A stretch of DNA of 44,404 nt from Trichoplax adhaerens (GCF_000150275.1 NW_002060951.1:2339919-2384322), one strand, 5' to 3'; counted from the first letter of the stretch, positions 1 to 42,725 are shown. Numbers and translations are program-made. The notes: generated by a model not told the origin, from the letters alone.

Positions 1-1020
1 GTACATGGACTGTACACCGTACAGTTAGTACTGTACCGTATTGTACTGTACTGTACTGTACGATGTGAGCCAGTGCTATTAGGCAATATAAATTGTAGTA
101 AAGCTGCAAAATTTGCCTCAAATTTTATATTAGCTTACAGTACTCTTACTCTAATTCCAACTGGTTCACACTGATGTGAGCCAGTTCTATTTAGAGTGCT
201 ATTAGGCAAAATAAATTGTAGTAAAGCTGCAAAAGTTTGCCTCAAATTCTATACATACAGATAGTGTACTTTAGTACACACTGTCATACTAAAGTCAACG
301 GCTGTTTGTTGCCCAAAATGAGGAGCTGATTGCTGGACTGTACAGTTAGTACTGTACCGTATTGTACTGTACTGTACGATGTGAGCCAGTGCTATTAGGC
401 AAAATAAATCGTAGTAAAGCTGCAAAATTTGCCTCAAATTTTATATTAGCTTACAGTACTCTTACTCTAATTCCAACTGGTTCACACTGATGTGAGCCAG
501 TTCTATTTAGAGTGCTATTAGGCAAAATAAATTGTAGTAAAGCTGCAAAATTTGCTTCAAATTTTATATTAGCTTACAGTACTCTTACTCTAATTCCAAC
601 TGGTTCACACTGATGTGAGCCAGTTCTATTTAGAGTGCTATTAGGCAAAATAAATTGTAGTAAAGCTGCAAAATTTGCTTCAAATTTTATATTAGATTAC
701 AGTACTCTTACTCTAATTCCAACTGGTTCACACTGATGTGAGCCAGTTCTATTTAGAGTGCTATTAGGCAAAATAAATTGTAGTAAAGCTGCAAAATTTG
801 CTTCAAATTTTATATTAGATTACAGTACTCTTACTCTAATTCCAACTGGTTCACACTGATGTGAGCCAGTTCTATTTAGAGTGCTATTAGGCAAAATAAA
901 TTGTAGTAAAGCTGCAAAATTTGCCTCAAATTCTATACATACAGATAGTGTACTTTAGTACACACTGTCATACTAAAGTCAACGGCTGTTTGTTGCCCAA
1001 AATGAGGAGCTGATTGCTGT
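1..1020. repeat. Higher-order tandem satellite array. Monomers of about 123 bp start at 487, 610, 733 and 856, with a 111-bp variant at 62 and 376. Longer about 203-bp units at 173 and 856 carry an extra 100-bp segment plus a GTAC tract.
   Basis: Near-identical copies of gatgtgagccagttctatttagagtgctattaggcaaaataaattgtagtaaagctgcaaaatttgc...ccaactggttcacactgat recur with a 123-bp period. The 314-bp block 62-375 is repeated at 376-1020 with three extra monomers inserted. Confidence 0.9.
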
Positions 1021-1205
1021 ACAGTACATAGACTGTACACTGTGTACAGTTAGTACTGTACCGTATTGTACTGTATTGTACTGTATAGCGTACTATAGTA
1101 CACACTGTACTGCATCGATCGGACTGGAGTCGTAATGGATTTTTTCGGGTACACCGTACACTGTACAGTACAGTATACCGGTAGTCCATGACGTACTACT
1201 GTAGA
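1018..1205. repeat. GTAC-palindrome microsatellite tract (degenerate GTACTGTACAGTAC units) immediately upstream of the AIP-like gene start.
   Basis: Dense runs of tactgtacagtac / gtactgtac variants. The motif is its own reverse complement. A similar short tract lies at 1-61 and 336-375 inside the satellite. Confidence 0.85.
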
Positions 1206-1301
1206 CGGTTCAAATTTCCTTACGAATATTCTCGAACATTATCTGCCATTAATTTATTTTGCCTTAGACTTCGTGATTAACGATTAATAATTTCAATCGG
1301 T

Positions 1302-3647: not shown

Positions 3648-6515
3648 GTTACGTTTATCTTGGATTATTATATTATAAATTTGCTGAACTAGCCAAAAAT
3701 TGAAATCGTTGCAACCAATGTGTAAATAGGACAATTTATCATAGGTACTGTTTTTGGATGTGACTGTTTAATGTTGAATAGTAGACTTTAATTTTCATCC
3801 CCTCTTCAGTAAACGTTGCTAGTGATCTTAATGATTGATTAAATTTATTTAAGTTTCCATTATTCAGTTGCCAAGGGGGTTAGTATTTTCCAATAGCGAT
3901 TGTTACGTGTTATCTTATTTTATAACAGTTTCCAATATACTGATATGTTTGTGACTTTCATCGTATCATATGTATAACCTTTATATTATTAAATGCTAGT
4001 GCATATGTGTAGTGTTCTTAATTATTCCATTTCTCATACTATGCGTACAAATTCAAAAAATATCCGATACGAATTTTATTGATAATTATAATTGTATTAG
4101 TTGTAATTCTTACAGCGGCTAAAAATAAAATGTACATTAACGTCATCTTATTCAACCGTAAGATTTTCGATCAAACTGGAAAGTTCAATTGGAGTAAATA
4201 TCTGTGAACCACAGCAGTCTGATAGCAGTCCATAAATATACAATTTTAAATATTGACGACCTAAAAATTTATATAATGAAGACGTCTGCTCTTACGATAT
4301 AGTAAACAGTAGGCGTGATAGCCATAATTTTTAATAGCTTTAATGATGTTAACGCTTTAAATATCAGTATTACTTATAAAATTGTAGTAGCTACGTACTC
4401 CAATCTATCCTGAGCGGTATTTACTTTCAAAAACTATTTGCACTGTGAGCGGTGTGAGCTAATTGCTAATGCAATATTGTGAACGATCACATACATGCTA
4501 ATTCAGTATAGTACCGCAATACGTCTGATCAGACAAGTTTTATTTACTGACAGCAATTCTTACATTTTAGAGACTTGACTTTGAGTTCGGAATACCTTAG
4601 AGTAGATTCTTGCTAGCAGTTAATTATTGCTCTACTATTCTTAAACTTTGTAATAAAAGCCTTTTCTTAAATTCTCTCTTGACTAAGACAAATATTGTGA
4701 GATACTTTTATTATACGACCGTGTAAAGGAAAATGAAATATTCTCCATACTGTCTTAACAGAACCAACATATCCTGTGTTAGTAAAAGTTTTCGCTCCAT
4801 CTATAACATCTTCATGTAATTTATCGATTTCAGCTTGAGCCTGTTTGGTCTTATCATTTACTATGCAAATACTGCGTGGGATATAGTATCATAGGTGTTT
4901 TTATTTATCGAGAATAAAGTCCCTATTAACATTTCCTTTAATCGTATGATCAGATCTGATTGATTGAAATTTCTAATTCTAAAAATAACGCATTGAAGAT
5001 TACCAAGAATTATGAAATCATCCTGTTTTGTATCTTTATGTCTACAGTAAACGAGTATATGAGTACAGTATATATCTATGTATAGGTAATTAATACTTTA
5101 CAGGTACTAATTTCGAAAATCTATCAATCACTAGTAATATAGCGTATTATTGCAACAGATGGTCATAATTTAGTTATTTAATTCTTAAAATATTTTGGAT
5201 AATAGGTATAATATTTACTTTTTCTCTTAAATCACTGTGCAACAGGATTCTAAAACTGACGGTAAATAAGTAACAGCAGGAATCTGCGGTACAAACTAAG
5301 TTATTTCGTAATAATTGAGGTCATGTTGCACTACAGCGATATACGCATGCCATTCAATCTGACTATAGTAATATACAGTGAGTTATTAGTCATGAAAGGA
5401 AAATTAAACGTAATATTATACTAAATATTAGTAGTGATGTTATTTTAATATTATTAATGTAGAGTTTTCACTTTTGGTAAGAGTTGTTTGAGGTTTAAAA
5501 TAGTCTTAAATGAGGTCATGCAGTTACTCTTTAGGGCAAGTGTACCTGATACCACCCAATATTATAGGTACTCGTATAAATGTACAGTATAGCAAGCCTA
5601 ATGATCAATGTCTACTTTATGCATTAATCATTCGACGAAATTCGTAATTGAAAACTATTGATCGTTGATCGAATAACTTTTTACTAGGTACTGTATTGTA
5701 ATTCGTATACGAATATACCAGTAACGTAAGCCATGGTTACTGAAGCAATAGCATAAGGTGGTGCCTGTCCGTCGTAAAGCTTCGTCTAAATATTCTAATA
5801 TAACTCATACTATAATATTGTATACCATACAGTGTTAACGCGTATTTTCTTATTATAATAATAATTTTTGGTTACTAACCAACTACTACACACCCAGTTG
5901 AGCGCCATTACTATAAACTCTAGCTGTACTGCTCCTGATAATAACTACAACCTGTATTCCCATGTTTTATAGCGCATCACATAGAGTGCGTTTGCACATT
6001 TTGTAATATTTATGATTCACGGTATTATTGAATTTGTTTTCTTTAATTTATCCAACAAGCATTATTTAAAAATTTACTAACGTCTACGCTACAATTACAC
6101 TCAATTTCCATTTTCCATATACGCGTATTGTGTAATGTATACGAATATTTATTATTTCAATTTATCAGTTAAAGTAACTACAGACCACAGTACAGATTAT
6201 AGATAGAATTATGAATGTACAATTGGTGATATATCTGCAATCCAGATTTAACTACGCCAGAGCATCTAATCGGCTAATGTGTAGATTAAATATAATGTAC
6301 TATTCTTGTCATTTTTACTGAAGTAACACATGGAATGAATATTGTAATAACTCTTTAGTACTGTACATTTGGCAAACAGTAAATTAGTAAGCATATAGTA
6401 TTTTATAGTTAAATTGTTAATATTCAACTTTTGTAGTATTAGTTGCCATATTCCTGACGAATTCCGTTTCTATATTGAAATTATCACCAGGTATTTCTAA
6501 TATCACGGGTCGATA

Positions 6516-6803: not shown

Positions 6804-8536
6804 CTATAAATAGAATAAAACCTCGAATAAGTGAGTATGAACTATTACAATCGTTGCAGATGTTGGTTATTGGTAAAAATTTGAAATACATTGCACATTT
6901 GGCAATTATATTCTATAGAATTGTTTTAGCCTATCGTTAAAATGTAAGTGCAAATCATATCAGTTGCATATGCGAGCTTGTTTGTTTATGAATGTATAAC
7001 ACTGCCAGAATTTTTACTTTATGAAATATTACAATAGTTTCTCGTTCAGGATACAGCAAGACGATTGAGTGTGATAGAAATCTTCTACATACGTAATATC
7101 GAGGACGATAAACTAATAACTATAATATAGTTCTGATAAGTGTGTTATCGTCAATTAGTATAAATATAATTAAAAAATTTGTAAAGTATTCTAGTTTACT
7201 TTTATACAGTTAATCACAGATTGCCATAAGAAGATATGCAAATTACAACGTACCTCAAATTCATTATAACTGACACAAGATACAGGTACAGAAGTAATGC
7301 CCTTTTCTGCTGCGGAGAAACGTAGAGCACTGCTGGCTCAGCAGGCATTTCAACAGGACCTGATAAATCTTTCGTGTCAATAAGGTCACATTGTTCTATA
7401 TATTCTTGCATAGTTGCGAGGACTATTTCAGACTCGCTCTTTAAAGATGAGTTTTCTTGCGACAGTTGTTCAATTTTAATTTTAAGCATATCATTTTCAT
7501 TTCTTAGTTTTTGATTCTAGAAATAGTTAATTGTAATTTAGTAAACTGCCAAGTGGGTCCTGTCAATAATTCGTTATAGTAACTGTATTTCGTATAGCAC
7601 ACATACGCGTAACTAATCTAAGCAATTATGATGCAGTATGTAATGTACATCTCCATGCAGATCTCATATCAGGTGTACTATAAGAAAGTAATTGTTTAAC
7701 TTTTCAATATGATATATGCACATTAGATTTTAATGTTAAGACTTATGCTACGGTATTAACCTCTAAACATGGATAGTATCTTAATGATGACTATCATCTT
7801 GTAATGTATGTACAGTACTATACATTACCTCATTTCGTAAAACATCTACATTCGATTCCAAATAATTCATTAGCTCCTTCTTTTTATCTCTAGCTGCCTG
7901 AGCTGCTATACGATTTTTAATTTTTCTGCAAACAAAAAAGATTCAATAAAATATGAAATCGTTTCCCATACAACAATGAGATTTTAGTTAAAAGTTATAT
8001 ACCACAGCACAACAAGAGCAGCTCCTGGCTGCTGTTTGATTTTTTTCTACAACGGCAATGTTTAACTTTTAGTTCAATAACTTAATTAGCGTATTATATA
8101 GTGCAGAGTAATTAGGTTTTAACAGCTTTAATTGTATAGTAGATACAATATTTTAATTTGATGAACGCCAATGAAGACTATACTGTACAGTAGAAATGAT
8201 AATTATTATAATACATGACCTGTAACTGTACTGGTTACTAAATGCGCCTAAAATGATACAGAAATCTAGCGGTCTAATATCTTACTATACTGTACAGTAC
8301 AGTACTGCATGATCGTTACATCACTAAGATGCACTATAACTACAGCGTCCAATACTACAATACATTGCCTGAATATATACTTCAAGATAGAAAATTCAAT
8401 TTTACCGATTAAATCTTCTTTCTTCGGGTGTCAGGTTTGGATTGCGCTTTCTTTTCCTACGTACTGGTGAAGGTATATCTTCAGAGTTGCATGACGAATT
8501 ACATGTGTTACTATCTGAAAATCCTGAATCTTCCAT
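6516..8536 (-). CDS. XBP1: X-box binding protein 1 (bZIP UPR transcription factor). Gene span; 4 conventional exons (8406-8536, 7829-7925, 7254-7516, 6516-6803). Exon 3 carries a 20-nt IRE1-type unconventional intron (7313-7332). Predicted spliced isoform XBP1s about 252 aa; unspliced XBP1u about 213 aa.
   Basis: Minus-strand translation MEDSGFSDSNTCNSSCNSEDIPSPVRRKRKRNPNLTPEERRFNR / RKIKNRIAAQAARDKKKELMNYLESNVDVLRNE / NQKLRNENDMLKIKIEQLSQENSSLKSE... matches the XBP1 basic region and zipper as I recall them (RKLKNRVAAQTARDRKK...ENQKLLLENQLLREK). Removing 20 nt shifts the frame so that exon 3 joins in phase 0 to the acidic C-terminal exon (FGLDNNEYLQDDTFADDF...NIIR*, track ORF 6516..6797). The unspliced frame instead terminates about 50 codons into exon 4. 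Confidence 0.85.
7254..7516 (-). CDS. XBP1: XBP1 exon 3 (leucine zipper; contains the unconventional intron)
   Basis: Acceptor tttctag|aatcaa; perfect donor ag|gtacgt at 7253/7254. Confidence 0.85.
7313..7332 (-). other. XBP1: 20-nt unconventional (IRE1/RtcB-type) intron of XBP1 mRNA with twin stem-loop cleavage sites
   Basis: On the mRNA strand, gagc[CAG|CAGT]gctc is a 4-bp stem with a 7-nt loop, and tttct[CCG|CAGC]agaaa is a 5-bp stem with a 7-nt loop. Both loops fit the IRE1 consensus CNG|CNGN. The excised segment is cagtgctctacgtttctccg (20 nt, +1 frameshift). Confidence 0.75.
7829..7925 (-). CDS. XBP1: XBP1 exon 2 (bZIP basic region)
   Basis: Acceptor gtttgcag|a; donor gag|gtaatg. Confidence 0.85.
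8406..8536 (-). CDS. XBP1: XBP1 exon 1
   Basis: ATG = reverse complement of 8534-8536; donor cg|gtaaaa; ends in phase 2. Confidence 0.8.
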
Positions 8537-8915: not shown

Positions 8916-9232
8916 ATGTACTGTACAGTACAGTACACCAGTAACAGTGCATTCTTAATGTTGTACTGTACACTGTACAGTAGCAACGATTTGTCTACCC
9001 TCTATGAGAAAATGGCTATGCTGCGTCATACGTATGTGCGCATCCTCTGAATTTTATACGAATTCTAGTATAAAAATAAAACATTACATAATCTAGTCCT
9101 ACTCTACAATCTACAGTACTGTACATGCGCGTAGGTAGGATGCAATAATGGGCGTGTCTGTTGTGTAGCAAGAGGAGCTGCCTTATAGCAGACATTGCTA
9201 CTGTACTGTACTGAACAGTACTATACGGTATA
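8916..9232. repeat. GTAC-palindrome microsatellite tracts (8916-8985, 9108-9128, 9199-9232) upstream of XBP1 (minus strand)
   Basis: tactgtacagtacagtac..., ctacagtactgtacatg, ctactgtactgtactgaacagtactatacggta. Confidence 0.8.
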
Positions 9233-9902: not shown

Positions 9903-10180
9903 AAAAGATACAGTGCTGTACCACTGTACAGTACAGAACAGAATACAGTATTACTGTTACTATACAGTAGAACAAAACCACCGTTGCTAAGTTATAGTCT
10001 CAGCGGCAGGGACATTGTAATGCATTGATACGACAGGAATCTGTTAATATACAGCGTAATGAAGTAGGTGATATACTGTACTAGTAGTCGGCGTTGTTTT
10101 AATTGCATTATTTCAAGAAATGATTGATTTGTACGTATCTACAGGATATGACGTACTGTAGTTAGGCTGTTACACTACGT
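9903..10180. repeat. GTAC-palindrome microsatellite tracts upstream of MVP
   Basis: gctgtaccactgtacagtacagaacagaatacagtattactgttactatacagtag, plus weaker copies to 10180. Confidence 0.75.
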
Positions 10181-15109: not shown

Positions 15110-15960
15110 AACTACGGTATACTGTACAGTACAGTACAGTATTCCGTTTCAAAGGCATACTGTACTGTACTGTGCAGTAAGTCGTTTTAATTTACAGTAG
15201 TTATAATCTTCCCGCAGCTATTATATATTCGTAATTATACTATATTATGTTGATTAAAGTTCTTGTCTACTTAAAAATCTATAACCACTAATTTTAGTCG
15301 AATATTCAGTACAGTACAGTAGGCCAGGCCAACCCAGCTTGCAAAAACCTGGTACTACTGTACAGTACACTGTACAATATTCATCGCTGAAGCAGCTCTA
15401 TCTATTCTCTTGCCTCTACTGAACCTAATACCAAGTTTCATAAAGTTTGATTAAGATTTAAACTACTGTACTGTATAGTAGTTTAAATCTTAATCTGTAC
15501 ATATTGGGTGGAAAATCATTGTTTGGAGCTCTGCCCACTATGCCAAGGTGATAATAAAAAGTATAGTACATAATAAGCGTATTTGCAGCTTGACAAGTTC
15601 TAGCCTGCTGCTGCCTCAATGTACAAACCTTCGACAGGTGTAACTAGCACTAGCTTGGTTCGAGACGGAGGGACATTCGGCCGGCCTTCAGTACTGTACT
15701 GTACAGTGTACAGTACAAGAGACCAAAGACCGCGCCTGCATCTACAGTACAGTACTGTAGGTTTTATTGTGCTAGGCCGCCTAGGCGTACAGTACTGTAC
15801 TGTACTGTACTGTAGACGTGACTCCCAGGCTAGTGAAATTTTTGTACTGTACCGCACAGTAAAAAAAGGTGTCCACTGTTGTACAGTAGAATACGATACT
15901 ACTGAAGTAGTGTACACTGTAGTGACTGTACCATGTACTGTACAGTACATATCCGATTCA
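15110..15960. repeat. GTAC-palindrome microsatellite tracts (15113-15180, 15307-15378, 15463-15481, 15688-15955) upstream of the Mondo gene
   Basis: Long runs of gtactgtactgtacagtac variants. They create the overlapping spurious ORFs 15600..15980 (-) and 15619..15999 (+). Confidence 0.9.
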
Positions 15961-16118: not shown

Positions 16119-16312
16119 ATGGAACGAATTTTTAATACAAATTTGCGACCAGTAAACTCTAATAATGGCAACTTATCTTCTGGCTACAATTTTGCACGTT
16201 TTGGACAAATGCCGAAGCAATACAACTTTTTCAATCGCTATACTCTGTCCGATAAGGTTGCCGATGGTGATTCTTTAGCTCAATTACTCGACTGTTTGAG
16301 ATTGGAATATAG
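16119..16312 (+). CDS. MLXIP: Mondo exon 1 (first ATG after an in-frame stop; start and the existence of further 5' exons uncertain)
   Basis: Ends ...SLAQLLDCLRLEY ag|gtatat (MCR II). Confidence 0.55.
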
Positions 16313-19300
16313 GTATATTGTGATGTATATTCTAATCCAAATTATACCATTTCAAATACAGTATAAGGTATTAAAAAGATTTCAAGGACAGCGCCTCAGT
16401 ACATAATTTGCGGTACTGTACGTGTAGTAATAAGCAATTTTTGTAGTTTAGACAGTACTGTATACTGTACGTATGTCCCGAAAACTTCAGCATGTTCAGT
16501 ACTTACAAAGGGGCACAGTTTCATAATTTACTGTACTGTATTCTATACCGTGGACCGACCGGTTAATTTATTCAGCTCGAAAAATTCATAGAAATATAAC
16601 ATCGACCAATTAATAATTTCCTAATTTTTTAGTTAATTATTAAACCTACAACTCTTTTCATTTTAGTTATTATTTAGGCAAATTTGATGTCTGAACGCAT
16701 TCACTAGAACTGTACAGTACAGTACAGTGTACACTGCACAGTATAGCTGTATTTTAACCAGCACGCGAACTGTATCATACTGTGCTTCCTGCTGTACCGT
16801 ATTGTACAGTACAGTGTTCACCTTATGATCACGTATTCAATGCACTAGTTGGTTGCCATGTCATAAACTGCAAGTGTTTTCCTTATAGTTAAGTACAGTA
16901 ATTGCCATACACTAAGTATTTCAAAATTATTAATACGCAATTTGCTGTCACAAAATGAATTACTAGCCTAAAATTGCAATGAATTATTATCATTAAAATA
17001 TACGATGGCTTGTTTCTGACATTAGCCCCTTCTACAGTATATCGCAAATCCCCAGTTCTCCTATATTTAGTGATATTTAGACTAGTTAATGTAGACTGTA
17101 CAATGTACAGTCTACATTCGTGGTACATTAATTAAGTTAAGTTAACGTTGTCGTGTAGCACATTTATAAACACAAAATATTAACATATCATGAAATCTTT
17201 ATTATGGACTATTATCGACTGGTTTGAAACCCCTTTTTTCTTATATTAGTGACACCTTGCTAACTCCGAGATGGAAGAACTTCAAAAGTCAAAATCTAAA
17301 ATGGGAACAAAAACGGAGATTAAACAACATCATTTGGAGAGCCTGGCACATGCAATGTAAGTTGTATTAAAGTTAACCCTCTGATACTTACAACAGCGCA
17401 AAGTTCTTGCAATAATGTTCTTGTTTCATGCTATACAATTTTCAATAAATATTCAAAATTTTATGACTACATAATTACAGTACGATTGTATCATAACCCG
17501 AGGTTATTCACTATTTATGCTGCAATCGTTAGATAGATTTATTGCGCTATACTGCTTCATTTTTTACGCGTATTAGTCACTTTTGCCGTAACTTATCTTT
17601 ATGTAAAAAAATGTCGTTAGCAATGTGTGAAATATCCAATATACTATTAAGTTCCAAGTAGTATACGAAGTGGTAGATTCAAGACATGCCAACCGATAAA
17701 AGATAAAGAAGTACCTTATAGTACTAAGCTGCCATATATGCTGCGCTTCGTGAATCGTATCCAACAGTTTATAAATATAATTAGAAGCTGCCAATGATCT
17801 TATTGATCTTTTGGATAATGTACATGAAGTTGTTGAACCTGTTTAATTGTAGAATCTTTAGTAAAAAGCCACAATCTGTGCGGTATTACATAATCTTGAT
17901 AACAGTTTTTATGTTGGGACGGAAGAGAAGAGCACAGTATACTATCAGAAACGTATCTATCGTTGCGGTTTTGATGTGCTACGTTCGACATTACGACTAA
18001 CAAGGTCTTCCTATTTAACAGTTCAAAAGCATCGTAACTTGCCATTCTGTAAATTTGCCATCCCTTTCCTTGAAAATATGCACAATAAACCTCAGGTATT
18101 GACGTAATAAAAAGCTCTATATTTAAAGAATTAAAGTAAACCGTTGTATGGATAGCCATGACTACCAATCTATCCTAATTTTAATAATTGATCACTGTAT
18201 TACATCAAGCAATGACAGGAGCGTATCATAAATATTCTTAAATATTTTTCTACATGAAGGCAATCGTAGTAGAAGGTGAACATTGGCGTCGAAGGCTTGA
18301 TGCCATTGCGTCAGAATATAAACGATGGAGATGTTATTTTGGGCAGGTACTTGTATGATCTAGTCGCTAGATTACGAATCTTACCTCTAAAAATGAGATT
18401 TTTGTCTTTATTAGCTAATTGTAATTTTTGATCTTTTCGAAATTTAGACTGTTACACCTCCTGAAACAGAGACACAAGTCATTCTGGGAAATGTCTGTTA
18501 TATTTTGTCTACATCATCATATAACGTTAAATCGATATCGTTTTATAGATTTTTACCTTATTGCTACGTTTTATGTGCTTCTATAGGATGATGAATTATC
18601 GCAACAACTGAATGATGCATCCAATAAATTGATCAAAGAACAATTGACAGGGTTAGTCAACTAAGATATTATTTTGTAAGCAATAGGTCTTGAAGCTGCT
18701 TCATAACTTGAATACCCCCGTTACTGCTGAGAATAATCATTTCAGTATTTTCATTGATAATCTTAATTAGGCCAGGGAATGATAGCGAAATATTCCAAAA
18801 TTCAGCAGATGGTAAGTGTCACAGCTGCAGATTAGAGGTAGTATAACAGCAGTAATTTATCGTAACGGGTATTCACTGCTAGTTATTGTAATTTTTAGAT
18901 TTTTTTTCGTATTGAGTTGTAAGTCGAGTACTGATTTCGAATCTTTCATTACAGTTTTCATGTTACCAGATACGCTCTTTTCCAGTCTAGCACCTGTAGA
19001 CGACTTCAATTCTACCGACGAAAGACTTATGGGTAAGAAAGTCTTCGGTAGTTATTATCATGAAGACGTAGCAAAAGAATAATAATAGATTACGTTGTTC
19101 TTTAATATAGATACAGCAGATTTAATCCAACCAACCCTTGATCAATTACAGCCGTCTGTTGCAGATTTATTGGCTACGATGGAAGATAACGGTGAGAGCA
19201 TTATTTCGATATTAAAAAATGCATGCTTTAACAATTGACTATTTAATGCGAATTGCAGTTAGCTAAATTTCTTTCCATATAACCATGTCTTTACGACAAA

Positions 19301-26687: not shown

Positions 26688-26870
26688 AGGGTCTCTACTG
26701 TACAGTTACAGTACACCGTACAATACAGTACAGGACTTTAATATAGTAAATGGTGACACTGTACAGTACTGTACTGTATACGGGTACAGTACGGGTATGT
26801 CCAGTACAGTACTATACACTGTACACGGTATGCTCAGTACTGTAGGACACTGAAGACAGTAGCACAGCGG
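26688..26870. repeat. GTAC-palindrome microsatellite tract in the 371-bp divergent SPT4 / L10K intergenic region
   Basis: ctactgtacagttacagtacaccgtacaatacagtacagg...gtacagtactgtactgtatacgggtacagtacgggtatgtccagtacagtactatacactgtacacgg. It creates the spurious ORF 26706..26990 (-). Confidence 0.9.
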
Positions 26871-26934
26871 CAGCAGTGCTACTGCCATCACAACTTGCAA
26901 GCACAAAAGGAGATTAGAAGACGAAATTACAAAA

Positions 26935-27885
26935 ATGCCACAAGGTCCTGTTAGGAAATTATCCAAAGCGAATAATAGTAAAAAAGTCAAAAGATTAACT
27001 AAAACATCGATAAAAAGTGAGTTCTATCTAATCACAATTTGACGCTCTACTGCTTTCATTTTTTGACAGTGCTGTATAGTAAATGCAAGGAGTAGTTTTA
27101 CTATGGACTGAGGCGTATACCTGTATCTTTATGCCTATTTCACTCCGTATTTATTGATCATGGCTGTTTTTAGGGAATGCAAAGCAGCCTAGGAAGGGTA
27201 CGAAAGTAACTGGTGCTGACAAATTAAGGAAGGTATATGAATTGAAAAATTGGGAGATAATATTCCTGAATGAAGCTAGAAATCAATTAATTCTTAAAAT
27301 TTCTGCATGATCAGTAAAGCTCGTATCCTTAATATGATACACGTCCTACATTATTGGATGCTTATTCAACAAATGTACATTACTGCAACAAGCTAATAAT
27401 ATAGTTATTGGGATGACTTGATAAGATTATTCCAATACTGCAAACTTGCCAATAATATGGCATAAAACTTGATGCACTGCAAGTGGATGCAGTTGTAATG
27501 TAAGAATACGCGTATTTTATAGTAACAACTGTAAGTGAGAACAGGTGATGCAGAATTTCTATACTGAAATTCTCTACTCAGTCCATTACAGTATATCAAT
27601 TTATGTAAGAGATCAAATAAATTTAGTGTAATATATCGGATCCGAATACCAATTTACAAATACAGTACTTATTCACTTATTCATTAAAATCAACTTACGT
27701 GTATCCTTCTAACTGCGTATGATCTTGCATTTCCATCAACACAGACTTTGCAAAAAAACATTAACAAAAGTATAGAGGAAGACGTTAGACAGCGAGCTTC
27801 AAAGTATGAAGTCAAACCTTTCTATATCATCCGTAACGATACCACCACGAAGGAAACATTAAAAAAGAAACCCGAAAGTAAATGA
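26935..27885 (+). CDS. Leydig-cell-tumor 10 kDa protein homologue (C19orf53 / L10K, UPF0390 family). Gene span; 3 coding exons (26935-27016, 27174-27232, 27745-27885), 93 aa.
   Basis: MPQGPVRKLSKANNSKKVKRLTKTSIK|RNAKQPRKGTKVTGADKLRK|TLQKNINKSIEEDVRQRASKYEVKPFYIIRNDTTTKETLKKKPESK* resembles the human protein as I recall it (MAQGQRKFQAHKP...[47 protein letters not shown]...). Splice sites aaa a|gtgagt, tttttag|gg, agg aag|gtatat, aacacag|act. Total 282 nt. Confidence 0.65.
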
Positions 27886-28703
27886 ATTGATCCTCCGAAA
27901 GAATATTGGGCAAAAATTTTTACTCAATATAGTACTAGATATTGCTTGCAATATTTAGTCTACTTGTGCGCATTCAAACTAGCTTAAGTTTATCTTGGTA
28001 TCCAATCGACGTACACCATACAGCAAAAGCATCATCAGTGCAAGATGCTGAATTATGAAATACTTCGACATACGTGTGTACTTATTTAAGGTATATTCTT
28101 TTAAAAGCCATAATGATTGCATTATGATGGTACCTGAATTTGTAAATTTCCGTGAGCTGTCTTAATAGGATGTTATGTTTACAATTTTGTAACAAAGCTA
28201 ATATAATAAAATCTTTAGTCTTTAAACTGCAAGCCACATTGCCATGTCAGCAATGCACATAGTGTACAGTATGTTCGTATGAGAACATCAATGACTTTTC
28301 TCGCGGATCACACGTACACATATACGTAAACGATGTATGGTAGTGATAATATTTTGAGTCAGTAGATCTATCCATTAGTATAGCTAACTAACTTCCACAT
28401 TGATCATAAGTTCAAAAATGCCCTATACTGTATTGTATTGTTAAAATAATGACAACATTAATGTTGATTCCATTCTAGGCCGTAAATTATACTTTACAAG
28501 TTAAATTGCACAATATCTATGATATTTTATAGCATTTCTAACATTATAGGACGAGCGAATGATAAACCTGGATCTAAATTGAAATACTCGTACAGTATAC
28601 AGTATTATTCATCACCAAAACGTTACGGAGAAAATATGACAGACAGTGTATGAACTAGTGTAACTAATGTAACTGAATCTGAATGATCACAAAGGAGTTT
28701 GAC

Positions 28704-28922
28704 AGTTTCAGTTCTTAATCAGAACAGTACAAGCTTATTGCTTATAGTGCTTATGGGCTAACAGTTAGTTTCACTAGTTAATTGAAACTGCACAAGCTTT
28801 ATTGCTCACAGTATTTGTGAGCGATACGCATGAGTTTAGCCATCCAGTTAGTTTCAGTTATTAATCTGAATAGTACAAGTTATTGCTTACATTATTTGTG
28901 AGCTATACACTTGTTTTGCAGA
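28704..28922. repeat. Three diverged tandem copies of an about 75-80 bp unit
   Basis: cagtt(ag)tttcagtt(a/c)ttaatc(tg/ag)aa(t/c)agtacaag(c)ttattgcttaca(g)tatttgtgagc... recurs at about 28704, 28763 and 28846. Confidence 0.6.
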
Positions 28923-30967
28923 ATAAAAAAACTTTTACGTTAATTCAAATAGTTGAACTACCAAACTAATTATTCCTCCATTACTCAGTAAGGATAATCA
29001 GGACACAGTCAAGAATATAGTAACGGCTACTAGGGCCAAGATTAAACTTGTAACCAGTATAAACTTAGCTATCGAATGTTATGTGGTTTGTGTTGTATTT
29101 ACTGTTACTAGTCAACTTTAGTGAATTGCTAGTGAACGAGTCAATATGTACTGTAATTACGGTATTAAGTTAATATCATTGTTTTAAGCCCTGCAGCTAC
29201 TGTGCTGTATGCAGTTTATCTGCACTAATTCCTAGACGTTACAGGTCTGTCATACATACAGCTGTAGCAATGATGACCATACTGTACAGTACAGTACCGC
29301 TCTGGCAGTCTCCAAAGTCCAAATACCATACCGACAATATATTTTAAAAGTAGTGAAAAATAAGTTATTGATAAATATTAAACGAAACTTCCGTCGCTGA
29401 TTATATTCAGACCAGATATGTAACCTAAGATTAATAATTTATTGCATAACCACAAAATTAATATCATCACTGGTAGATAATTACGTATGTTAATTTTGTT
29501 AATAATATTAATTTGATTGAAATTGACAATGGTTAAATAACAACCAGCCTAACTAGGAACTTAGTTTAAAATAGAGACCTTGGATTAGTTTTTATTTTAA
29601 CTAATCATCACTTCAACAGCTACAATATGTAAAAATAGATTTTTGAGAGAGATTCAATTTTACTTTAAAACGTGTAGGATCGCAAATTGCCAACACTCGT
29701 CGATGCTGCATTGATGCATTAAAAAATATGTCCATAGAACAATGGATTTTCATTGTTTATCTTTAAGACCGGAAATTAACACGACAGAAAGTAAAATTAC
29801 AAAGATAATTGAGATATATCACAAAATTTTACAATCAAACCTCTTACAAAACCCTTTAAAAAAATAAGAAAATGTTTAAAGTTCTCGAATCTTTGAACAT
29901 GTGCAAACTTATACTTCTTATAGCTGATAATCTTTGCTCTTGAGATAGTTGATAAATTAATTGGTAACCTATAAAATATTATATTAACTTCGAAATCATC
30001 AATAGCGTCAAATACGCAGGTACTGTCAACTTAATCTAAAATCTCAGTCATTATTTAATTATATACTAACACTGAATATACTCTATTTCTGTTGTGCTAC
30101 GAATTCTCACTTCTTTATGGTATCGCGATTGGCATATCATAATATGCCCTAGCCATAGCTCACTAAAACTTTATACTCCAATATTATTAAACTGGTAAGC
30201 GAAGAGATACAACTGCTTTAGAGCCAGAAATTTGAGCAATCTCCTAGATTCTGCACTGTATGTGATTAATCTTCAACAGTCAGTTAAAATATGGGTTGTT
30301 ATAATTATTATTCCTAAAATATTTTCATTCTTTATTAACAAAACTGATTACAGCTTGGTTGTAAATCATCAGTTATTATAATTATAATCATAGGCCTGTT
30401 GCGATATCTGGTCAGTACAGTACTCTAGACAGACATTTTAATAATATTGTGCTGTTGGTGTTGGTACTGTACTTGTTTAGACGGGGTAACAATAATTCTG
30501 ACACATTGAAATGTTGCAGTGAGCTCAGACAGACAATGAGCAAATGTAAATAAATATAATAAGCGACAGTCAAATAATGTAAAGCAAAAGGTACAGTACA
30601 AATAAACAGCAGTACGCGAAGTATACAAAATACTTGCTTTTTGAAACATACTAGCTAAACATCCTGTCGCTTCGCCGACAGAGATATAGGCAGCTAAATG
30701 ATTATAATGCAAAATTGCAGTACCACGCAAAGTTCAAAGAAACATTTTATTACTGCTGAAATACAAATGCGAGACTGTACTATACAGTATACAGTACTCA
30801 CAGTATATATTCTAAATGCAGCACAGTTACTAACTATAATTAATATAATCCATCTAGTCCTATATTAAACCGTGAACAGGAGTAACTGTGACACTAACAA
30901 GAAATGAGAGACCATATCAGATCTAAAGAGACGGATAGCGCAAACTTTAAATTCCGATTCATTTTCT

Positions 30968-31385
30968 GTCACTGACCGTACATACTGTACAGTACAGTAT
31001 GTACTAGCATACTGTACTGTACTGTACAGTACATTACAGCGTAAACATGGCTGAAACAACACCTTATTTTCTGTTTACGGTACTGAATAAGGTGGTGATC
31101 CTTACTACTGTACTGTACTGTACACTGTACACTGTACAGTACAGTACTGTAAAAGAAAATTACTGCCTGTACTGTACTGTACAGTACTGTAGTCTACAAT
31201 ACTGTACAGTACAGTACTACATGGTTACAGTACTGTATACTGTAGAGGTTTTTTTCTTACCTCTAGGCTAGCCCATAATGCAGTATACAGTACTGTACTG
31301 TACACTGTACAGTACACTAATTTTGAATACTGTACAGTACTGTACAGTACAGTACAGTACATTACACTGAGTTTAGTACTGTAGA
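30968..31385. repeat. Largest GTAC-palindrome microsatellite tract (about 0.4 kb, interrupted at 31040-31110), 250 bp upstream of the Tudor/PHD/MYND gene start
   Basis: ccgtacatactgtacagtacagtatgtactagcatactgtactgtactgtacagtac...actgtacagtactgtacagtacagtacagtacattacactg. It generates the spurious ORFs 30865..31062 (-) and 31047..31271 (+). Smaller tracts lie at 30410-30470 and 30770-30800. Confidence 0.9.
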
Positions 31386-31806: not shown

Positions 31807-34800
31807 GTAAGTTCTTCATTTAACTGCAATATTGCCTCATATTATATGTGCTCACTCACTTCATCGCCGACTCCAAATAATTTGTTATAAAAGTTACCAC
31901 TAAATCCAATGTTCTCAGAAATTGTGTCTCTTTTTACTCGAGAATATTTTGCAGCGTCGCATGTAGAAAGTACCTTAGCACTGTATTACATTTCAAATTG
32001 AGATTATTTTCTATTAATGGTGGATCATTATAAAGCATCTCTTGAATGGTGTGATATTGCTCTACTGTACTATTATGTGCAATATTTTCAATGTAATTCC
32101 ATCGATTGGTGACATACAGTATTACTTTACGTTAGCAGTGAGTGGATACCAATAATTACAGTACTGTACAGCTGCAAGTCTAGTCTTTACTCTCTATTGT
32201 CTTTGTCATTTCTATCAGTATCTTTCGAGTTTACAATATATAATTAGACATACGCATTCTGTAATACCGTTAGTATCTCATTTTCCTTTTCTACTGTATG
32301 CTTTTCAACATGTAATGAATACCGAATAAGTGTGTATAATACTGGTAGAGTAACAGTAAATATAGGATATGTCGTTTTTACCAATGTTCATGAAACTACT
32401 TCGAATCAGACAATTAGACATTTATTTTATTTAATTTTACTATACAGATTGTGAGTACATAAAACCACCTTTGTAAAAAAGAGTGTCGTACGGTACTGCA
32501 CGGCTCCATACTGATACTGTACAATCTTTTACAGTACTTCAGTGGACATGCTGCACAGTGCACAGGTATACTGTATACTGTACTGTACGTTCAGTACAGT
32601 ACAGGTCATCGATAGCCTTTGTGCTCGCATTGATTCAAAGAGAAAGAGTTGTTCAATGTTCACTGTACACACCGTACGTACTGTACGGTACTATACGGTT
32701 TTGTTCTGTAGATGTGTGGCTGTATTATAAGAGTAGATGCGTTATATGCATTACCTAGTATAACTACAGCCTTTAGCCTTGAGTGCAGCACATCTTTTTT
32801 GTCTTTGCACTATTGCTTGCTAAACAATAGACGTAAAATGCAGCGTGCTTGTAGACTTGGCTAATTTTATTTCTTTATTTATTAAAAAGTAAAAAAAGTA
32901 TATACCATAAATATATAATATATACCTGAAATTATTCTATGAAGTTGAAGATCTTAAAAGCGTTTGTGTGCTATCACATTACTCAGCTTGGAAGAACTGC
33001 CAAGTTGATAACTTACAGTAGTGTAGAAAATACAGTACAGTACTGTACTGTACAGTATATTAATTGTGCAAAGTGTACAGTACAGTACACCATACAGTAC
33101 AGTACTGTGCACTGTACAGTACAGTATTCCTTCTCGGTTACTTCTGGACGACCGTCTACAGTACTGTACATTTTATTGATATACTGTATTTTGGATTTTA
33201 CTGTAACGTAAAGCTAGCTCATAGTGATAGTGTGAATTGTATCTGTTCCAGTATCAATCAGCACCGCTTAATAACAAACTAACGTTAGTATCAGTAATAA
33301 AATAACGCATCACACACATCAACTTCTTTATCCTTGACTGCCGGAGTTGTGAGCTTGCGAGTGACTGATTCCATCATCCATTGTACTATTAGGAATAAAT
33401 ATTACTATTAACTGAATGCGATGTACAGTATTACAATGAATCCACTTAGCATCGGTGTTCATTCATTAAAGCTAGAATTTTTAGAAGGGCAATTAACTCC
33501 AATTTTTGCCGTTACTTCTATAAATTTTTAATGTTGGGGCTGTTGTTGTTCGGATTTTCTATTTACTCAAGTTGGCGATACCACTACGGAAATCGTCTGC
33601 ATCGTTTGTAAGAGTGGCTCTTCTGAATCACCTAACGAGATTGTCTTATGTGATCGATGCAGTATTGGTAAGTAATAATGATTAATTAAAATTTTAGTGC
33701 TATATTCTATTGAAGTCTTCATGCATGCAGCGCAAAAGAGTTTGAAATCATTACATGTTTAAACGTTTAATAAACAAGAAAGTATCAATTAATCCTATGG
33801 CAATCAATTTTAGCCTATTACAACGTCAATGTAAAAGTATTTACTGTTAGTGTAGTCAAAAATTTCATTAATCTTAATTAATTAAGTAACAGTACTGGTG
33901 CTGATGGGAATACGTACATGCGCGTATATTATGGTATCACATTATAAAATTATACTGCATGATATCTTTTATAAGTTCTAGCGTAAGGTGGTATCAGAAT
34001 TAGTACAGTACATTAGTTAGTTACCTGTTGCATACAGGTAATAATTTTTTTATTTACCATCAATACGTAAAGTCGTAGACTTTGTTCTAATAAATAAAAT
34101 CTAATAGATAAAAACATTAATTTAAATTTTTAAATACAGTATAGCTGAGTGATTGAGTTGTAGTGGATGATATGTCACAGATGACATTACGACAATTTGG
34201 TCATTTTTTCTATTTAGGATATCATCAACAGTGCCATTCACCACAGATACCAGAATCGGTTTTGAAGCCGGACGTTCCGTGGTTATGCCATTATTGTCAG
34301 TCGAGTGAAATTTGCCCATATTTTGTAAAAAATCCTTTTACTGACGATAAAGGAGGAAATTTTAATAATAAGGTAACGTATCATATATGCATCGATGTTA
34401 TATTCAATAATTAACCTCAAGATAACGCACATTACTGTAGGTAAATTAAAATTACAGTATAAGTACAAAATTATCCTATATTTCACTTATAATTAGCGAG
34501 CGACGGGATTTATATGATATTTTTGTAACAATCAGAAAAAGCCAATAGATAAAAAGCTACGAAAGAATCCATTTCCAGATCCTACTTTAACCTCACCTAA
34601 AGATGCTGTGATTGACCCGAAGAAAAGCGCTACTAAGAATACAAGAGTGTCCATACGAAAAACCATTAGTAAACGGAAGCGTAAGTGTATATAAATATTG
34701 TCTACTTGCTGCGTATGTATTTAAGGGCATATTGGTTATCGTACAGTATACAACTATATATAATAGTTAACGTTGTATAAATGCACCGTATTAAATCAGG

Positions 34801-39764: not shown

Positions 39765-39940
39765 TGTACAGTACGTTCTGTACAGTATACTGTACTGTAC
39801 TGTAACTGTAAGAACTAAAAAGGACTGTACCGTACAGTACAGTCCAGTACGTACTACTGCTACAGCCTGTAGATCTGATACGGTAACTACTCGAGTAAAA
39901 GAAAGAAAAACACCAACATTGCTACAGTACAGCACCAGTT
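39765..39940. repeat. GTAC-palindrome microsatellite tract upstream of a candidate gene start at 39963
   Basis: tcttgtacagtacgttctgtacagtatactgtactgtactgtaactgtaag...ggactgtaccgtacagtacagtccagtacgtactactgctacag; spurious ORF 39678..39953 (-). Confidence 0.85.
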
Positions 39941-42725
39941 TCAGGCACGCCACCTTGGCACATGGCTACAATAATGGAGTCTGGCAGTGAAAATGGTACG
40001 TTGCTAACTATTAGGTTAATTAAATCGTAAATCGACATATTTCGACTTTGAGCATATTTCCAGTTTGATTTCTTCTGACTTTTCTAAATAGTCAAGCCTC
40101 GTCTTTTTCAGCTTACAACCGAAATAAAACACTTTGCAACAGTTCAGAATGCATGGTAGCTTGCAGGAGCTGGGCAGTGGGCAACGTGGCCGCGATCGGA
40201 TTCGAAAATTCGTGAACCACTGTACAATTAATTACAATTTATTATTGAAAAGTACAGTCTACATATACATATACATATGTATCTACAAAAAATCCGCGTA
40301 TGTTGTCATGTCGACAACTACATCGAGATAAAAGTGATGTTTTTGACCTAAATTTGTTAACATTTACTGTATTTGATATTAATATACAGTACTATACAAA
40401 TGATGCATCACACGACGAAGATTTTTGTTCTACTGTAGATTGATCCGATTACAATATACGGTACAAAATATATCCAAATCCTCTCTCATTGTAATAATAA
40501 TAATAATTATTAGTCTCAGAGATTTTTACAACAACGTAAAGATGTTGTAGCATTAATTAATAAGCATTTCAAGTTAAAAGTTTATAAATGGACCTCCAAT
40601 CGTTTACTCTGAGATCATCGCAACAACAACTGTAAAAGGTATGATTTATCTGCCAATATTGGCTACTGACGTAAACTCTTTCTTTGAAGTTGCATGAAGC
40701 AAATGATTAGTGTAAGCTATAATATATAATTTAAGGAGTCATGGATGTTCCACATGATGAAAATCACGACGGTCATCTGAACTTACAGTAAATGATGCAT
40801 AAATATCTGTAATCGGACCTGATGGGCATCGTGACTTCTTTTAAGTTAATCAGTGAAAATCATTTAGTATTCTATGGCAAGTTCGTGTTGATATTTATTA
40901 ACTCTTTTTGCTCAGCTGATAATAATAATCAGCAATTCTTCATTTTAGAAATAGCGTAAACTTTAAGCATTTCCGTTTTGTTACTGTAATCCACTGCTTG
41001 TCGCACAACATCGTTAATCTATTTAATCTTTTCCTTTATATCTATCTAGGCTTTCTCTGAGACCGCTCTCTATGAAATGGATGGCATATGCGTAGACATG
41101 CAGCATGCCAAGCTGTGAGTCTGCGTTGTGCATGACCCCTGAAGGAGCTTAAGATGTGTAAAATCACAAAAAATAGGATAATAAAATTTTTGATGATAAT
41201 GGAAATCGAATTAGTTTTATTTTACTCTGCAACAGCCTAAAGTGATTTAAAAAAAGCTCTTGATTCAAGGTAAGATTGGACTGAAATTGCTGAATGATAT
41301 GCTGTAGACATCATTGGATTCGGATAAGTGCAGAATCTATGAAGCTGTATGAACTAAACATAAATCTATGATACTTACTGATTAGTGTTATTGTTAACAA
41401 TGTCGCAAAGCGATGAGCGGCGGTAAACTACCGTTCTAATACAGGTACACTCCTGTCTGTATGCAATGTCATCATCTGTAACAAAATAAAGTCAAATACG
41501 AAGTTTTTTTCTTCGAAACGATGTAGTAGCCTGATTGACTTCATGAATTCGAATAAGCTTAGACCAGTGTTAATTGTTCATAATTAGTACAAGTGCACAC
41601 ACTGTAGGAAACCGTGAACCGCGTTTCAAAAATCCTCAAAACATGTTCCAAAACCATAAAACGCGTTTCCATTTTTGCAAATATACGCCTGGAACGCGAA
41701 CCACGTTTCATAAAATATCGTTGAACCACGCAACTTTGGCTTAAACATACATGACTCCCACTGGTGAGCGGGTGCAGAGTTAGAATTTTCTTTTACCTTT
41801 GATATGTGTAAGCAACTGGTAAGAGTAACTTTGGACAAGTAAGGATCATGACTTAAAAGTTTGATGTACAGTGATACTGAATATATACGCATATACGAAG
41901 ATTTTATAAAAATTACTTAATATTTACTATAATCTTAAAATACCTCTCTGATCATAATAATTGGGTACTTGACAGTTTATCTAATAACCTCATGTAGATT
42001 GAAGAAAAGAGGTCTGCTTTATGATTAACGTTTACAATACCAAACGTAATTTGTGAAGTAGCTACCGAATTATAACGCAGATTCATTTCTAGTGATAAAA
42101 ATAATCGTTATTATGCTATAACCTGCCCCTCTCTCTGAATAGGGCCAAAATTAACGATCTTTTAATATAAGTTGTATAATAACTAATCACGTTCAAGTCG
42201 TCAACATAGTAACTGATACATGTTCGTTCGACATCATTGGTATTAAAAATTTATTTAATATATAAAATGTATATATTTTACAAAAATCTAATAAAAACTT
42301 TAGTCTGTTGATGAAATACATATAAAAAGTGCGAATTTAAGTTAATAAATCCAGCATCGCATAGTATTATTCCTGCGATACATACGAGCATGAAAACAGA
42401 ATTTATTTGGTTAGTTCCTACTTCGCTATCATATTGTACACATATGAAAATATCACTTTTCATCCGAAAGTTTGAGTAATGGATTCTCGCTTATCTACAT
42501 TGTCAAAAAATATTTGTGACCAATACATCACTAATCTACTATACGTATTGTGCTTTTCAAAAATTTTTAATTCCAATCAGTAGTAATTTGCAGTACTGTG
42601 ATCTTATCTCTACTAACGTTAGCTTTGTAACAATAATTCATGAACAACTATAACATTTACATGGTACAAAATGTTGATGAACTCGTAAATTTAAAATAAC
42701 TGTGTTCAGAATAACCGTGAGATAT

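Follow-up and report, generated by a model that had tools for sequence, protein, structure and literature searches.

Clusters of the (GTACW)n microsatellite accompany gene starts in a 44-kb window of the Trichoplax adhaerens genome

Results

Genes and start codons in the window

The window analysed here is a stretch of 44,404 nt (GCF_000150275.1, NW_002060951.1:2339919-2384322). Its source is Trichoplax adhaerens, as exons of three genes match annotated Trichoplax proteins with 100% identity: those of SPT4 to TRIADDRAFT_28457, exon 1 of XBP1 to TRIADDRAFT_64159, and exon 1 of AIP to the AIP protein of Trichoplax sp. H2. Positions relative to genes were counted from eight start codons (1302, 8536, 10474, 16119, 26563, 26935, 31635 and 39963), of which 16119, 31635 and 39963 are candidates. 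The eight do not include that of a minus-strand RGS-domain gene at the right end, because its promoter lies outside the window. The start codons proposed in the initial annotation for AIP (1302, plus strand) and XBP1 (8536, minus strand) agree with the annotated proteins, whereas that of SPT4, placed at 26563, lies at 26530 in the annotated protein. For the Mondo-like gene, both the ATG at 16119 and exon 1 belong to a candidate model. Window ORFs and the annotated SPT4 protein gave no matches in a search of the contig index. Neither Rfam nor tRNA scans of the window gave a match, indicating that the repeat tracts described below do not flank small RNA genes.

Table 1. Gene features and GTACW tracts in the window
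Feature	Position	Strand	Remarks
GTACW tract, duplicated-block copy 1	9..61		about 1.25 kb upstream of AIP start codon; GTACT unit count differs from copies 2 and 3
GTACW tract, duplicated-block copy 2	337..377		found by 7-mer caller and repeat search
GTACW tract, duplicated-block copy 3	1017..1112		190-285 bp upstream of AIP ATG (1302, +)
GTACW tract	1160..1203		about 100 bp upstream of AIP ATG
XBP1	exon 1, 8536-8405; exon 2, 7927-7829	-	tblastn with TRIADDRAFT_64159
Short (ACAGT)3-type run, XBP1 intron 1	8288..8307		
GTACW tract	8917..8982		380-445 bp upstream of XBP1 ATG (8536, -)
Short GTACW run, XBP1/MVP intergenic	9112..9125		
GTACW run, XBP1/MVP intergenic	9199..9222		
Degenerate GTACW tract, weakest of the promoter tracts	9923..9969		about 500 bp upstream of MVP ATG (10474, +)
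MVP start codon	10474	+	
GTACW tract, distal part of Mondo-like upstream cluster	15120..15199		
GTACW tract, Mondo upstream cluster	15307..15376		
Short GTACW tract, Mondo upstream cluster	15464..15501		
Biggest Mondo upstream tract	15689..15949		20 GTAC; 170-430 bp before candidate ATG 16119
GTACW tract 3' of candidate Mondo exon 1	16357..16540		probably intron 1
(GTACA)3 run, probable Mondo intron 1	16709..16728		further copy at 16794-16815
SPT4/L10K divergent pair, start codons as counted	26563 / 26935	- / +	
GTACW tract, middle of divergent SPT4 (-)/L10K (+) promoter	26696..26844		
GTACW tract upstream of Tudor/PHD/MYND gene	30983..31033		
GTACW tract upstream of Tudor/PHD/MYND gene	31106..31244		strong single-stranded hairpin potential
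GTACW tract	31286..31383		250-350 bp before candidate ATG 31635
Tudor/PHD/MYND gene	candidate ATG 31635		exon 1 ends at about 31807; PHD exon ORF from 33532
GTACW tract, Tudor/PHD/MYND intron 1	32515..32604		
Short tract, Tudor/PHD/MYND intron 1 zone	32662..32686		rich in ACGGT/ACCGT variant units
GTACW tract, Tudor/PHD/MYND intron 1	33014..33205		about 330 bp before PHD exon
GTACW tract	39765..39843		120-200 bp before candidate ATG 39963; last copy at 39925-39937

The tracts are the (ACAGT)n microsatellite of Trichoplax

Tracts were located with a caller based on 7-mers taken from strings of GTACA and GTACT units, independently of the initial annotation, and the locations returned by TRF and by a separate repeat search agree with it (Table 1). 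Every GTAC-rich tract listed in the initial annotation was found again, although the range given for them, 1018-39960, proved too narrow at its left end, with further copies at 9-61 and 337-377. The unit had been read as a self-complementary 14-mer, exact matches to which occur only five times in the window. It is instead a pentamer, GTACW, that flips orientation and appears as ACAGT on one strand and ACTGT on the other. Neighbouring GTAC cores are spaced by 5 in 93 cases and by 7 in 14, and the W position is occupied by A 49 times and by T 41 times. GTAC is the most over-represented 4-mer of the window (388 observed vs 139 expected), and tract 7-mers cover 2048 bases, as against approximately 291 in first-order Markov simulations. 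Tract bases amount to 4.6% of the window.

These tracts are clusters of (ACAGT)n/(ACTGT)n, i.e. (GTACW)n, the dominant microsatellite of Trichoplax adhaerens, which, with 5624 copies in the genome, makes up 78% of its pentanucleotide microsatellites (Wang et al., Biol Direct 2010, PMC2871265). The ACAGT/ACTGT unit and the perfect runs of >12 bp of the published repeat are both present here, the latter as perfect runs of 15-20 bp that begin near positions 42, 15307, 15792, 16712, 31167, 31342, 33075 and 39788. The initial annotation had been unable to connect the tracts with a known motif class, yet they had already been published (PMC2871265, PMC12817080). Its guess that they are lineage-specific was reasonable: the source is placozoan, and only there is ACAGT the dominant microsatellite.

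Tracts are concentrated upstream of start codons

As first proposed, tracts precede all eight definable gene starts; measured here, they lie 0.03-0.7 kb upstream of the start codon. With 28 to 59 tract bases, the MVP tract is weak. Counted over the eight ATGs, the upstream 500 bp make up 8.2% of the window but hold 31% of tract bases, a 3.8-fold enrichment, and the upstream kilobases make up 17% and hold 48%. Neither the 500-bp nor the 1-kb share was equalled in any of 1174 circular shifts. At least 59 tract bases are present in each of the eight upstream kilobases, compared with 25% of all 1-kb windows. At the divergent SPT4 and L10K genes, a tract fills the interval that separates the starts; the ATG at 26563 is 133 bp away from it and the one at 26935 is 91 bp away. 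Tracts also occur in three 5'-proximal introns, those of XBP1, Mondo and the Tudor/PHD/MYND gene, the last two on the basis of candidate starts. The remaining 57% of the window contains 25% of the tract bases, so it was fair to call tracts almost absent from gene bodies. ACAGT and ACTGT showed no strand bias relative to gene direction in the window.

Across the genome, Wang et al. (2010, PMC2871265) placed 54% of ACAGT repeats no more than 1 kb upstream of a gene and 85% no more than 5 kb upstream. On the strength of these figures together with the window statistics, the view that the tracts are a promoter-associated element rather than a randomly placed microsatellite is supported. As to mechanism, the initial annotation had put forward three candidates: an arrayed site for a dimeric factor, a nucleosome-positioning sequence, and an insertion or recombination hotspot.

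A positional bias of this kind could also be a by-product, with ACAGT repeats arising and persisting in the open, repair- and slippage-prone nucleosome-free DNA at transcription starts, where they would mark promoters and do nothing. The premise is that promoter DNA is among the little unconstrained sequence of a compact genome. Against this, the non-coding 3'-3' or distal intergenic stretches at 22000-24600 and 28000-30400 hold only copies of 15-20 bp. We consider such a neutral origin a strong competitor of the reading preferred below, although less likely than not, and return to further evidence on both sides of it.

The same positions bear on a possible role in RNA. UGUA is involved in binding of the cleavage factor CFIm, and UGUA every 5 nt on both strands might provide a bidirectional platform for UGUA-binding factors of this kind, terminating upstream antisense or read-through transcripts. 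Owing to the mixed orientations, TGTA does recur on either strand, and the tracts sit between closely packed genes. However, no tracts are found at the convergent 3' ends in 22000-24600, where terminators are needed, and ESTs contain only 14 ACAGT repeats, compared with 5624 loci (PMC2871265), from which it follows that the repeat is mostly absent from mature mRNA. We regard an RNA-level signal as very improbable.

Cluster architecture differs from that of ordinary ACAGT arrays

Each cluster is 50-400 bp in length and consists of numerous short runs of 2-4 units, which occur in either orientation and have degenerate units between them. Long head-to-tail runs in one orientation, as expected of an ordinary microsatellite, were not seen in the window: runs average 2.2 units, and the longest perfect run has 4. 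Among neighbouring units, 45 pairs have the same orientation and 39 are switched (54% same), and in the three biggest clusters the orientations are balanced regardless of gene strand. For comparison we used ACAGT arrays from 115 metagenome contigs, chosen for containing an orientation switch, in which 3043 neighbours have the same orientation and 632 are switched (83% same; Fisher p = 1e-9 against the window). The metagenome runs reach 20 units, and the arrays are kilobase-scale, up to 2 kb. The window tracts, with short runs whose orientations are mixed almost at random, thus differ from ordinary ACAGT arrays, and this is the observation added here.

That arrays of up to 2 kb occur in unrelated metagenome contigs implies that the repeat expands readily, and copies of a duplicated block at 19-60, 340-381 and 1044-1085 differ in their number of GTACT units, which shows that replication slippage acts on the tracts; both observations speak for a by-product. 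On the other hand, short runs of mixed orientation are unlike the freely expanding arrays seen elsewhere.

Mixed orientation also creates many inverted repeats, for example one whose 39-nt arms, separated by 116 nt, show 87% complementarity. Combined with the two flexible YR steps (CA and TA) in each pentamer, this raises the alternative of a structural DNA element that acts without a dedicated protein: a 5-bp phased, pyrimidine-purine-rich, locally palindromic sequence that would exclude or position nucleosomes, or else form hairpins or cruciforms when transcription makes the DNA negatively supercoiled, thereby delimiting the promoter. As a single strand, 31100-31385 has a much lower folding energy than shuffled sequence does (z = -8.5), but the hairpin potential of the SPT4/L10K tract is modest (z = -2.3), and a palindromic repeat yields high fold energies by construction. 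Such an element appears unlikely to be the explanation.

Variant units and transposons

The hexamers CCGTAC/GTACGG fall inside the tract zone, which makes up 22% of the window, in 11 of 15 occurrences. This concentration of ACGGT/ACCGT-type units is consistent with tracts being remnants or derivatives of the TIRs of Mutator-type transposons. Kim et al. (Nature 2025, PMC12221973) described preferential insertion of such elements at the promoters of highly expressed placozoan genes, for loop-anchor promoters, and reported that approximately a third of Trichoplax promoters carry a motif that is also present in Mutator TIRs. Variants of the ACGGT, ACCGT and ACAAT types are expected from point mutation of the unit and are present in metagenome arrays too, in line with a neutral origin. 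Direct and inverted repeat searches around the tracts detected no TIR pairs, no flanking unique transposon sequence and no target-site duplications at any of them, only families of pentamers. The genome contains 6 MuDR fragments, compared with the 5624 ACAGT loci (PMC2871265), and ACGG, as the transposon motif, and ACAGT have been treated as two separate motifs (PMC12817080). Transposon footprints are accordingly a rather improbable source of the tracts.

Comparison with a related genome

In a related genome fragment (L001), the first exon of MVP is 88% identical at the amino acid level and the gene is approximately 73% identical in nucleotides. At this one promoter, the 1.4 kb upstream of MVP contains only copies of 9-10 bp with no cluster, and its flanks could not be aligned. 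GTAC shows no enrichment in this stretch (21 observed vs 19 expected), the window's own MVP tract being the weakest. The missing conservation signal at the relative's MVP promoter is in line with a neutral by-product. Six first exons, combined into a chimeric query aimed at the orthologous promoters of other placozoans, matched only Trichoplax proteins.

Discussion

The promoter-proximal ACAGT repeat was already described in 2010 and is not a discovery of this study; the window therefore adds only an example and anatomical detail. The repeat of Wang et al. (2010, PMC2871265) is identical to the window tracts in organism, unit and position bias, and nothing essential differs. That study covered perfect repeats of >12 bp and left the cluster architecture and the copies in 5' introns undescribed, and it already suggested that the repeat is a transcription-factor binding site. 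A literature search with the literal string GTACTGTAC returned primers and unrelated matches only, and Najle 2023 contains no mention of the repeat.

Recent work on genome folding bears on the same repeat. In a 2026 deep-learning study, Trichoplax Micro-C maps served to train a network that recovered the 'repeating motifs ACGG and ACAGT', and inserting the recovered motifs in silico changed the predicted maps (PMC12817080). That ACAGT is informative for map prediction speaks against a neutral by-product. The motif described by Kim et al. (PMC12221973) likewise comes from Trichoplax, is repeated and promoter-proximal at broadly expressed genes, occurs in 5' regions too, and is tied to 3D contacts and insulation. 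This loop-anchor motif corresponds, according to PMC12817080, to the repeating ACGG of a transposon, whereas ACGGT-type units are only minor variants in the window tracts.

The reading we prefer, tentatively and at somewhat less than an even chance, is that the clusters are orientation-independent arrays of putative short binding sites for a placozoan-specific promoter or architectural factor, remodelled by slippage. Their sites would have the core GTACWGTA(C), and a putative placozoan-specific protein, either a sequence-specific DNA-binding or an architectural one, would occupy the arrays, deplete nucleosomes at the 5' ends of genes that are mainly broadly expressed, and contribute to the insulation that Trichoplax Micro-C maps show at gene starts. 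The arrays would be remodelled continually by slippage and flipping of units, and selection may hold site density high near the transcription start. In favour of binding-site arrays we counted the positional enrichment, an architecture unlike that of ordinary arrays, and recovery of the motif by the Micro-C network (PMC12817080). Counted against them were the lack of evidence for conservation at the L001 MVP promoter and the sample of eight starts, three of which are candidates. We also counted against them that slippage and tolerance of repeats in nucleosome-free DNA could produce the same positional bias without function.

A bolder version, which we hold to be doubtful, is that placozoan housekeeping promoters have their primary sequence code in the (GTACW)n clusters with their balance of two orientations. 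The microsatellite would have been recruited as an array for a putative lineage-specific architectural protein, possibly transposase-derived, that would act with the related ACGG-type transposon motif to set nucleosome-free regions, insulation and promoter hubs. If this were true, slippage would be a built-in, fast-evolving means of tuning how strong a promoter is.

The way in which placozoans, some of the simplest animals, specify promoters and 3D contacts is an active question. One pentanucleotide repeat stands before a large share of genes and is flagged by a model of Micro-C maps. Because it precedes many genes and was singled out by that model, the ACAGT repeat offers a concrete and cheap handle on the protein or DNA property that defines placozoan promoters.

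We know of no animal protein that binds GTACWGTAC, and to our knowledge none of the GRE half-site, Myb, Ovo and Sox sites fits a 5-bp phased GTAC core; these candidates were dropped. SBP-domain factors, a family of the green lineage (plants and algae), recognize GTAC-core elements. The palindromic core is common to their sites and the tracts, but the likeness is one of four bases only and nothing points to a placozoan counterpart. A closer parallel in organization is found in the GA-repeat (GAGA) elements of Drosophila promoters, which are bound by GAGA factor or CLAMP, proteins that keep promoters nucleosome-free. Like the GTACW tracts, GAGA elements have a short microsatellite-like unit clustered upstream of many promoters; they work in either orientation, and the number of sites varies by slippage. 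The two are unrelated in sequence and lineage, and a protein and mechanism are established for GAGA only. Poly(dA:dT) tracts of yeast promoters are likewise simple-sequence promoter features, whose length tunes nucleosome depletion without a specific activator through the stiffness of the homopolymer. GTACW is, in contrast, flexible, palindromic and mixed, so that its physical basis would differ.

Distribution of GTAC-based tracts in the window

Genes are densely packed in the AT-rich window (G+C ~34%), and GTAC is its most over-represented tetranucleotide (388 observed vs 139 expected from base composition), followed by CAGT, ACTG, CTGT and ACAG. Tracts were called by marking all 7-mers that occur in any string of GTACA and GTACT units and merging the marked positions. 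These 7-mers span 2048 bases (4.6% of the window), as compared with ~291 in first-order Markov simulations. The initial annotation had placed palindromic GTAC tracts at promoters and in first introns; the tracts are real, with the merged calls falling at the same coordinates and TRF and a repeat finder in agreement. Additional copies were found at 9–61 and 337–377, with scattered 15–25 bp copies elsewhere.

Placement was assessed relative to eight start codons, listed in the table. Those of XBP1 and AIP are fixed because the first exons match TRIADDRAFT_64159 and Trichoplax sp. H2 AIP, respectively, at 100% identity. The MVP first exon matches vault-domain proteins, and the hand-assembled SPT4 protein matches Trichoplax adhaerens TRIADDRAFT_28457, with SPT4 exons 100% identical to the window. 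Pfam matches back the remaining gene calls (PPIase_AIP and TPR, Tudor [weak], PHD [weak] and MYND) and identify an RGS fragment at the right end of the window. Annotated SPT4 begins with MDGVP at 26530 (minus strand); the in-frame ATG upstream of it, at 26563 (the position listed in the table), would add 11 residues. The Mondo-like, Tudor/PHD/MYND and 39963 starts are plausible, as candidates only. The last opens a 12-codon frame (39963–39998, MATIMESGSENG) that ends at a GTACGT donor-like site; a tract at 39765–39843 lies 120–200 bp before it.

Start codons, associated exon and intron-region clusters
Feature	Position	Strand	Basis
AIP start	1302	+	
XBP1 start	8536	-	
XBP1 exon 2	7927-7829	-	placed by TRIADDRAFT_64159 match
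XBP1 intron 1 cluster	8288-8307		intron confirmed against annotated protein
MVP start	10474	+	
Mondo-like start	16119		candidate
Cluster after candidate Mondo exon 1	16357-16815		
SPT4 start	26563	-	
L10K start	26935	+	
Tudor/PHD/MYND start	31635		candidate
Cluster between Tudor exon and PHD exon	32515-33205		
Candidate start	39963		candidate

The 500 bp upstream of the eight start codons, which make up 8.2% of the window, hold 31% of tract bases, and the upstream 1 kb (17% of the window) holds 48%; neither value was reached in any of 1174 circular shifts of the tracts. All eight upstream kilobases carry at least 59 tract bases, as do 25% of all 1-kb windows, and the closest tract edge lies 31–307 bp from the ATG. 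Between the divergent SPT4 and L10K starts, a 149-bp tract sits mid-way in a gap of ~370 bp. Three clusters occupy 5′-proximal introns.

The tracts are the Trichoplax ACAGT microsatellite

Successive GTACs are separated by 5 bp in 93 cases and by 7 bp in 14, every other spacing being rarer. The fifth base of the unit is almost always A or T (A 49, T 41, G 2, C 1), and the repeat is therefore (GTACW)n, which reads as ACAGT or, from the opposite strand, as ACTGT. The unit is thus a pentamer and not the 14-mer initially described, whose exact self-complementary form is present just five times. Runs are short, with 61 chains of 2–6 GTACs and a longest perfect run of 20 bp. Pairs of neighboring units comprise 21 ACAGTACAGT, 24 ACTGTACTGT, 25 ACTGTACAGT and 14 ACAGTACTGT. 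Orientation from unit to unit is close to random, and counts of ACAGT and ACTGT are similar in every cluster, whatever the strand of the neighboring gene.

Wang et al. (2010, Biol Direct 5:18, PMC2871265) reported the same pattern genome-wide: 61.8% of Trichoplax microsatellites are pentanucleotides and 78% of those are ACAGT (5624 loci), of which 54% lie ≤1 kb and 85% ≤5 kb upstream of the nearest gene. Functions in translation and protein modification are over-represented among the associated genes, ESTs hold only 14 ACAGT repeats, and a role in transcription factor binding was already proposed. The initial interpretation is supported in part, in that the element is promoter-associated and lineage-typical; its claim to novelty is not supported, because the tracts are this published microsatellite. 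A role at the RNA level, through UGUA, is highly unlikely given that the tracts are absent from convergent 3′ ends and from ESTs.

Three copies of a duplicated block, at 19–60, 340–381 and 1044–1085, vary in how many GTACT units they carry, a signature of slippage. Directly upstream of AIP, a 123-bp minisatellite (4.5 copies, 98% identical; 72–1002, core 388–937) sits inside a higher-order duplication in which a ~45-bp unique segment plus a GTACW tract occurs three times (9–61, 337–377, 1017–1112). Within the minisatellite unit lies a short inverted repeat (AACTGGTTCACA / TGTGAGCCAGTT).

Single-strand folding of the larger clusters was much stronger than that of shuffled sequence (z = -8.5 for 31100–31385; z = -2.3 for 26690–26850), as expected because the repeat is palindromic and of mixed orientation. 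Such palindromic content would fit a structural role that needs no protein, in which the tracts exclude nucleosomes or form cruciforms; we consider this role improbable.

Comparison with metagenomic arrays and a related MVP locus

We scanned JGI metagenome contigs with the 24-mer GTACAGTACAGTACTGTACTGTAC, which selects for an orientation switch, and 115 contigs matched (L005–L119). Many of their arrays run for hundreds of bases, up to ~2 kb (L084, ~300–2300; L118, L067, L062; also L020), and one orientation dominates (in L084, W = A 209 / T 4). Despite the selection, 3043 neighbor pairs share orientation and 632 switch, and runs reach 20 units. In the window, by contrast, 45 pairs share orientation and 39 switch (Fisher p = 1e-9), runs average 2.2 units with a maximum of 4, and the three largest clusters are orientation-balanced. 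The Trichoplax clusters are therefore not the product of free slippage. They resemble tightly packed short sites lying on both strands. This difference in architecture, the main addition of our analysis, leans towards constraint on an orientation-independent core with GTAC phased every 5 bp, although a flipping mutational process in palindromic DNA could also generate the mixture. The metagenomic contigs span 29–72% G+C, and many have a few project prefixes in common; given these prefixes, one or a few eukaryotic genomes probably carry the pentanucleotide as a satellite.

Four Logan assemblies (L001–L004; SRR30664515-17, SRR30660616) contain the closest relative, identical sequences aside, of the MVP first exon (88% amino acid identity); their source has 35% G+C and is plausibly another placozoan lineage. 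The gene has ~73% nucleotide identity to the window, and non-coding flanks do not align. The 1.4 kb upstream contains 9–10 bp copies only (TACTGTACA, GTACTGTAC, TACTGTACTG), and GTAC occurs 21 times vs 19 expected, at a single promoter whose Trichoplax counterpart has the weakest tract in the window. Neutral accumulation of the repeat in open promoter DNA is a serious rival, if a somewhat unlikely one: slippage is visible in the tracts and this one comparison, at the MVP promoter, lacks a conservation signal, but the tracts are nearly absent from other non-coding stretches and their runs are short and mixed.

Possible role in chromatin architecture

Kim et al. (2025, Nature, PMC12221973) showed that promoter hubs involve about a third of Trichoplax genes, and that loop-anchor promoters are enriched for a motif also found in Mutator transposon TIRs. 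A network trained on Trichoplax Micro-C maps yields "repeating motifs ACGG and ACAGT" (Chimaera, NAR 2026, PMC12817080); its authors assign ACGG to the Kim et al. transposon motif, report that in-silico insertion of the motifs found significantly altered predicted maps, and add that their network predicts insulation at Trichoplax gene starts. ACAGT is thus known, promoter-associated and computationally implicated in chromatin architecture. The placozoan literature examined yielded no ACAGT-binding protein or experiment.

Units with G or C as fifth base (ACGGT/ACCGT) are minor variants concentrated in tracts (CCGTAC/GTACGG, 11/15 in the tract zone). They are interspersed, for example at 26707–26800 and 32490–32710, at times 10–11 bp apart, and may link the ACAGT repeat to the "repeating ACGG" loop-anchor motif, known here by description and not by logo. 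While these variants leave room for a family relationship, we regard an origin of the tracts as Mutator footprints as decidedly doubtful: the repeat search of the window gave no transposon structure at the tracts, and ACGG and ACAGT are separate motifs in the literature.

Whereas the identity, position, architecture and slippage of the repeat are shown, for function we infer, tentatively and at slightly less than even chances, that the tracts are orientation-independent homotypic clusters. Their short sites would be bound, in either orientation, by a putative placozoan promoter or architectural factor, which would help to define the 5′ boundary of genes, mainly broadly expressed ones, as nucleosome-free and insulating. 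We prefer this reading because the positional bias is tight, the repeats are nearly absent from mRNAs, the architecture is not microsatellite-like, and Micro-C modelling recovers the motif. Existing placozoan chromatin data now allow a direct test of tract function.

Other features

Two adjacent open frames of 73 and 78 aa (4670–5097, minus strand) lie in the gene-poor stretch between AIP and XBP1. They contain a WRIFHFPLHG motif reminiscent of Helitron-type proteins; the frame at 4670–4888, the one of the two scanned, had no Pfam match at E ≤ 0.01. The pair may be a decayed mobile-element fragment, or nothing. An imperfect tandem repeat with a 21-bp unit (AAACCATAAAACGCGTTTCCA, 3 copies, 65% matches) occupies 41609–41671, close to the 3′ portion of the RGS-domain gene on the minus strand.
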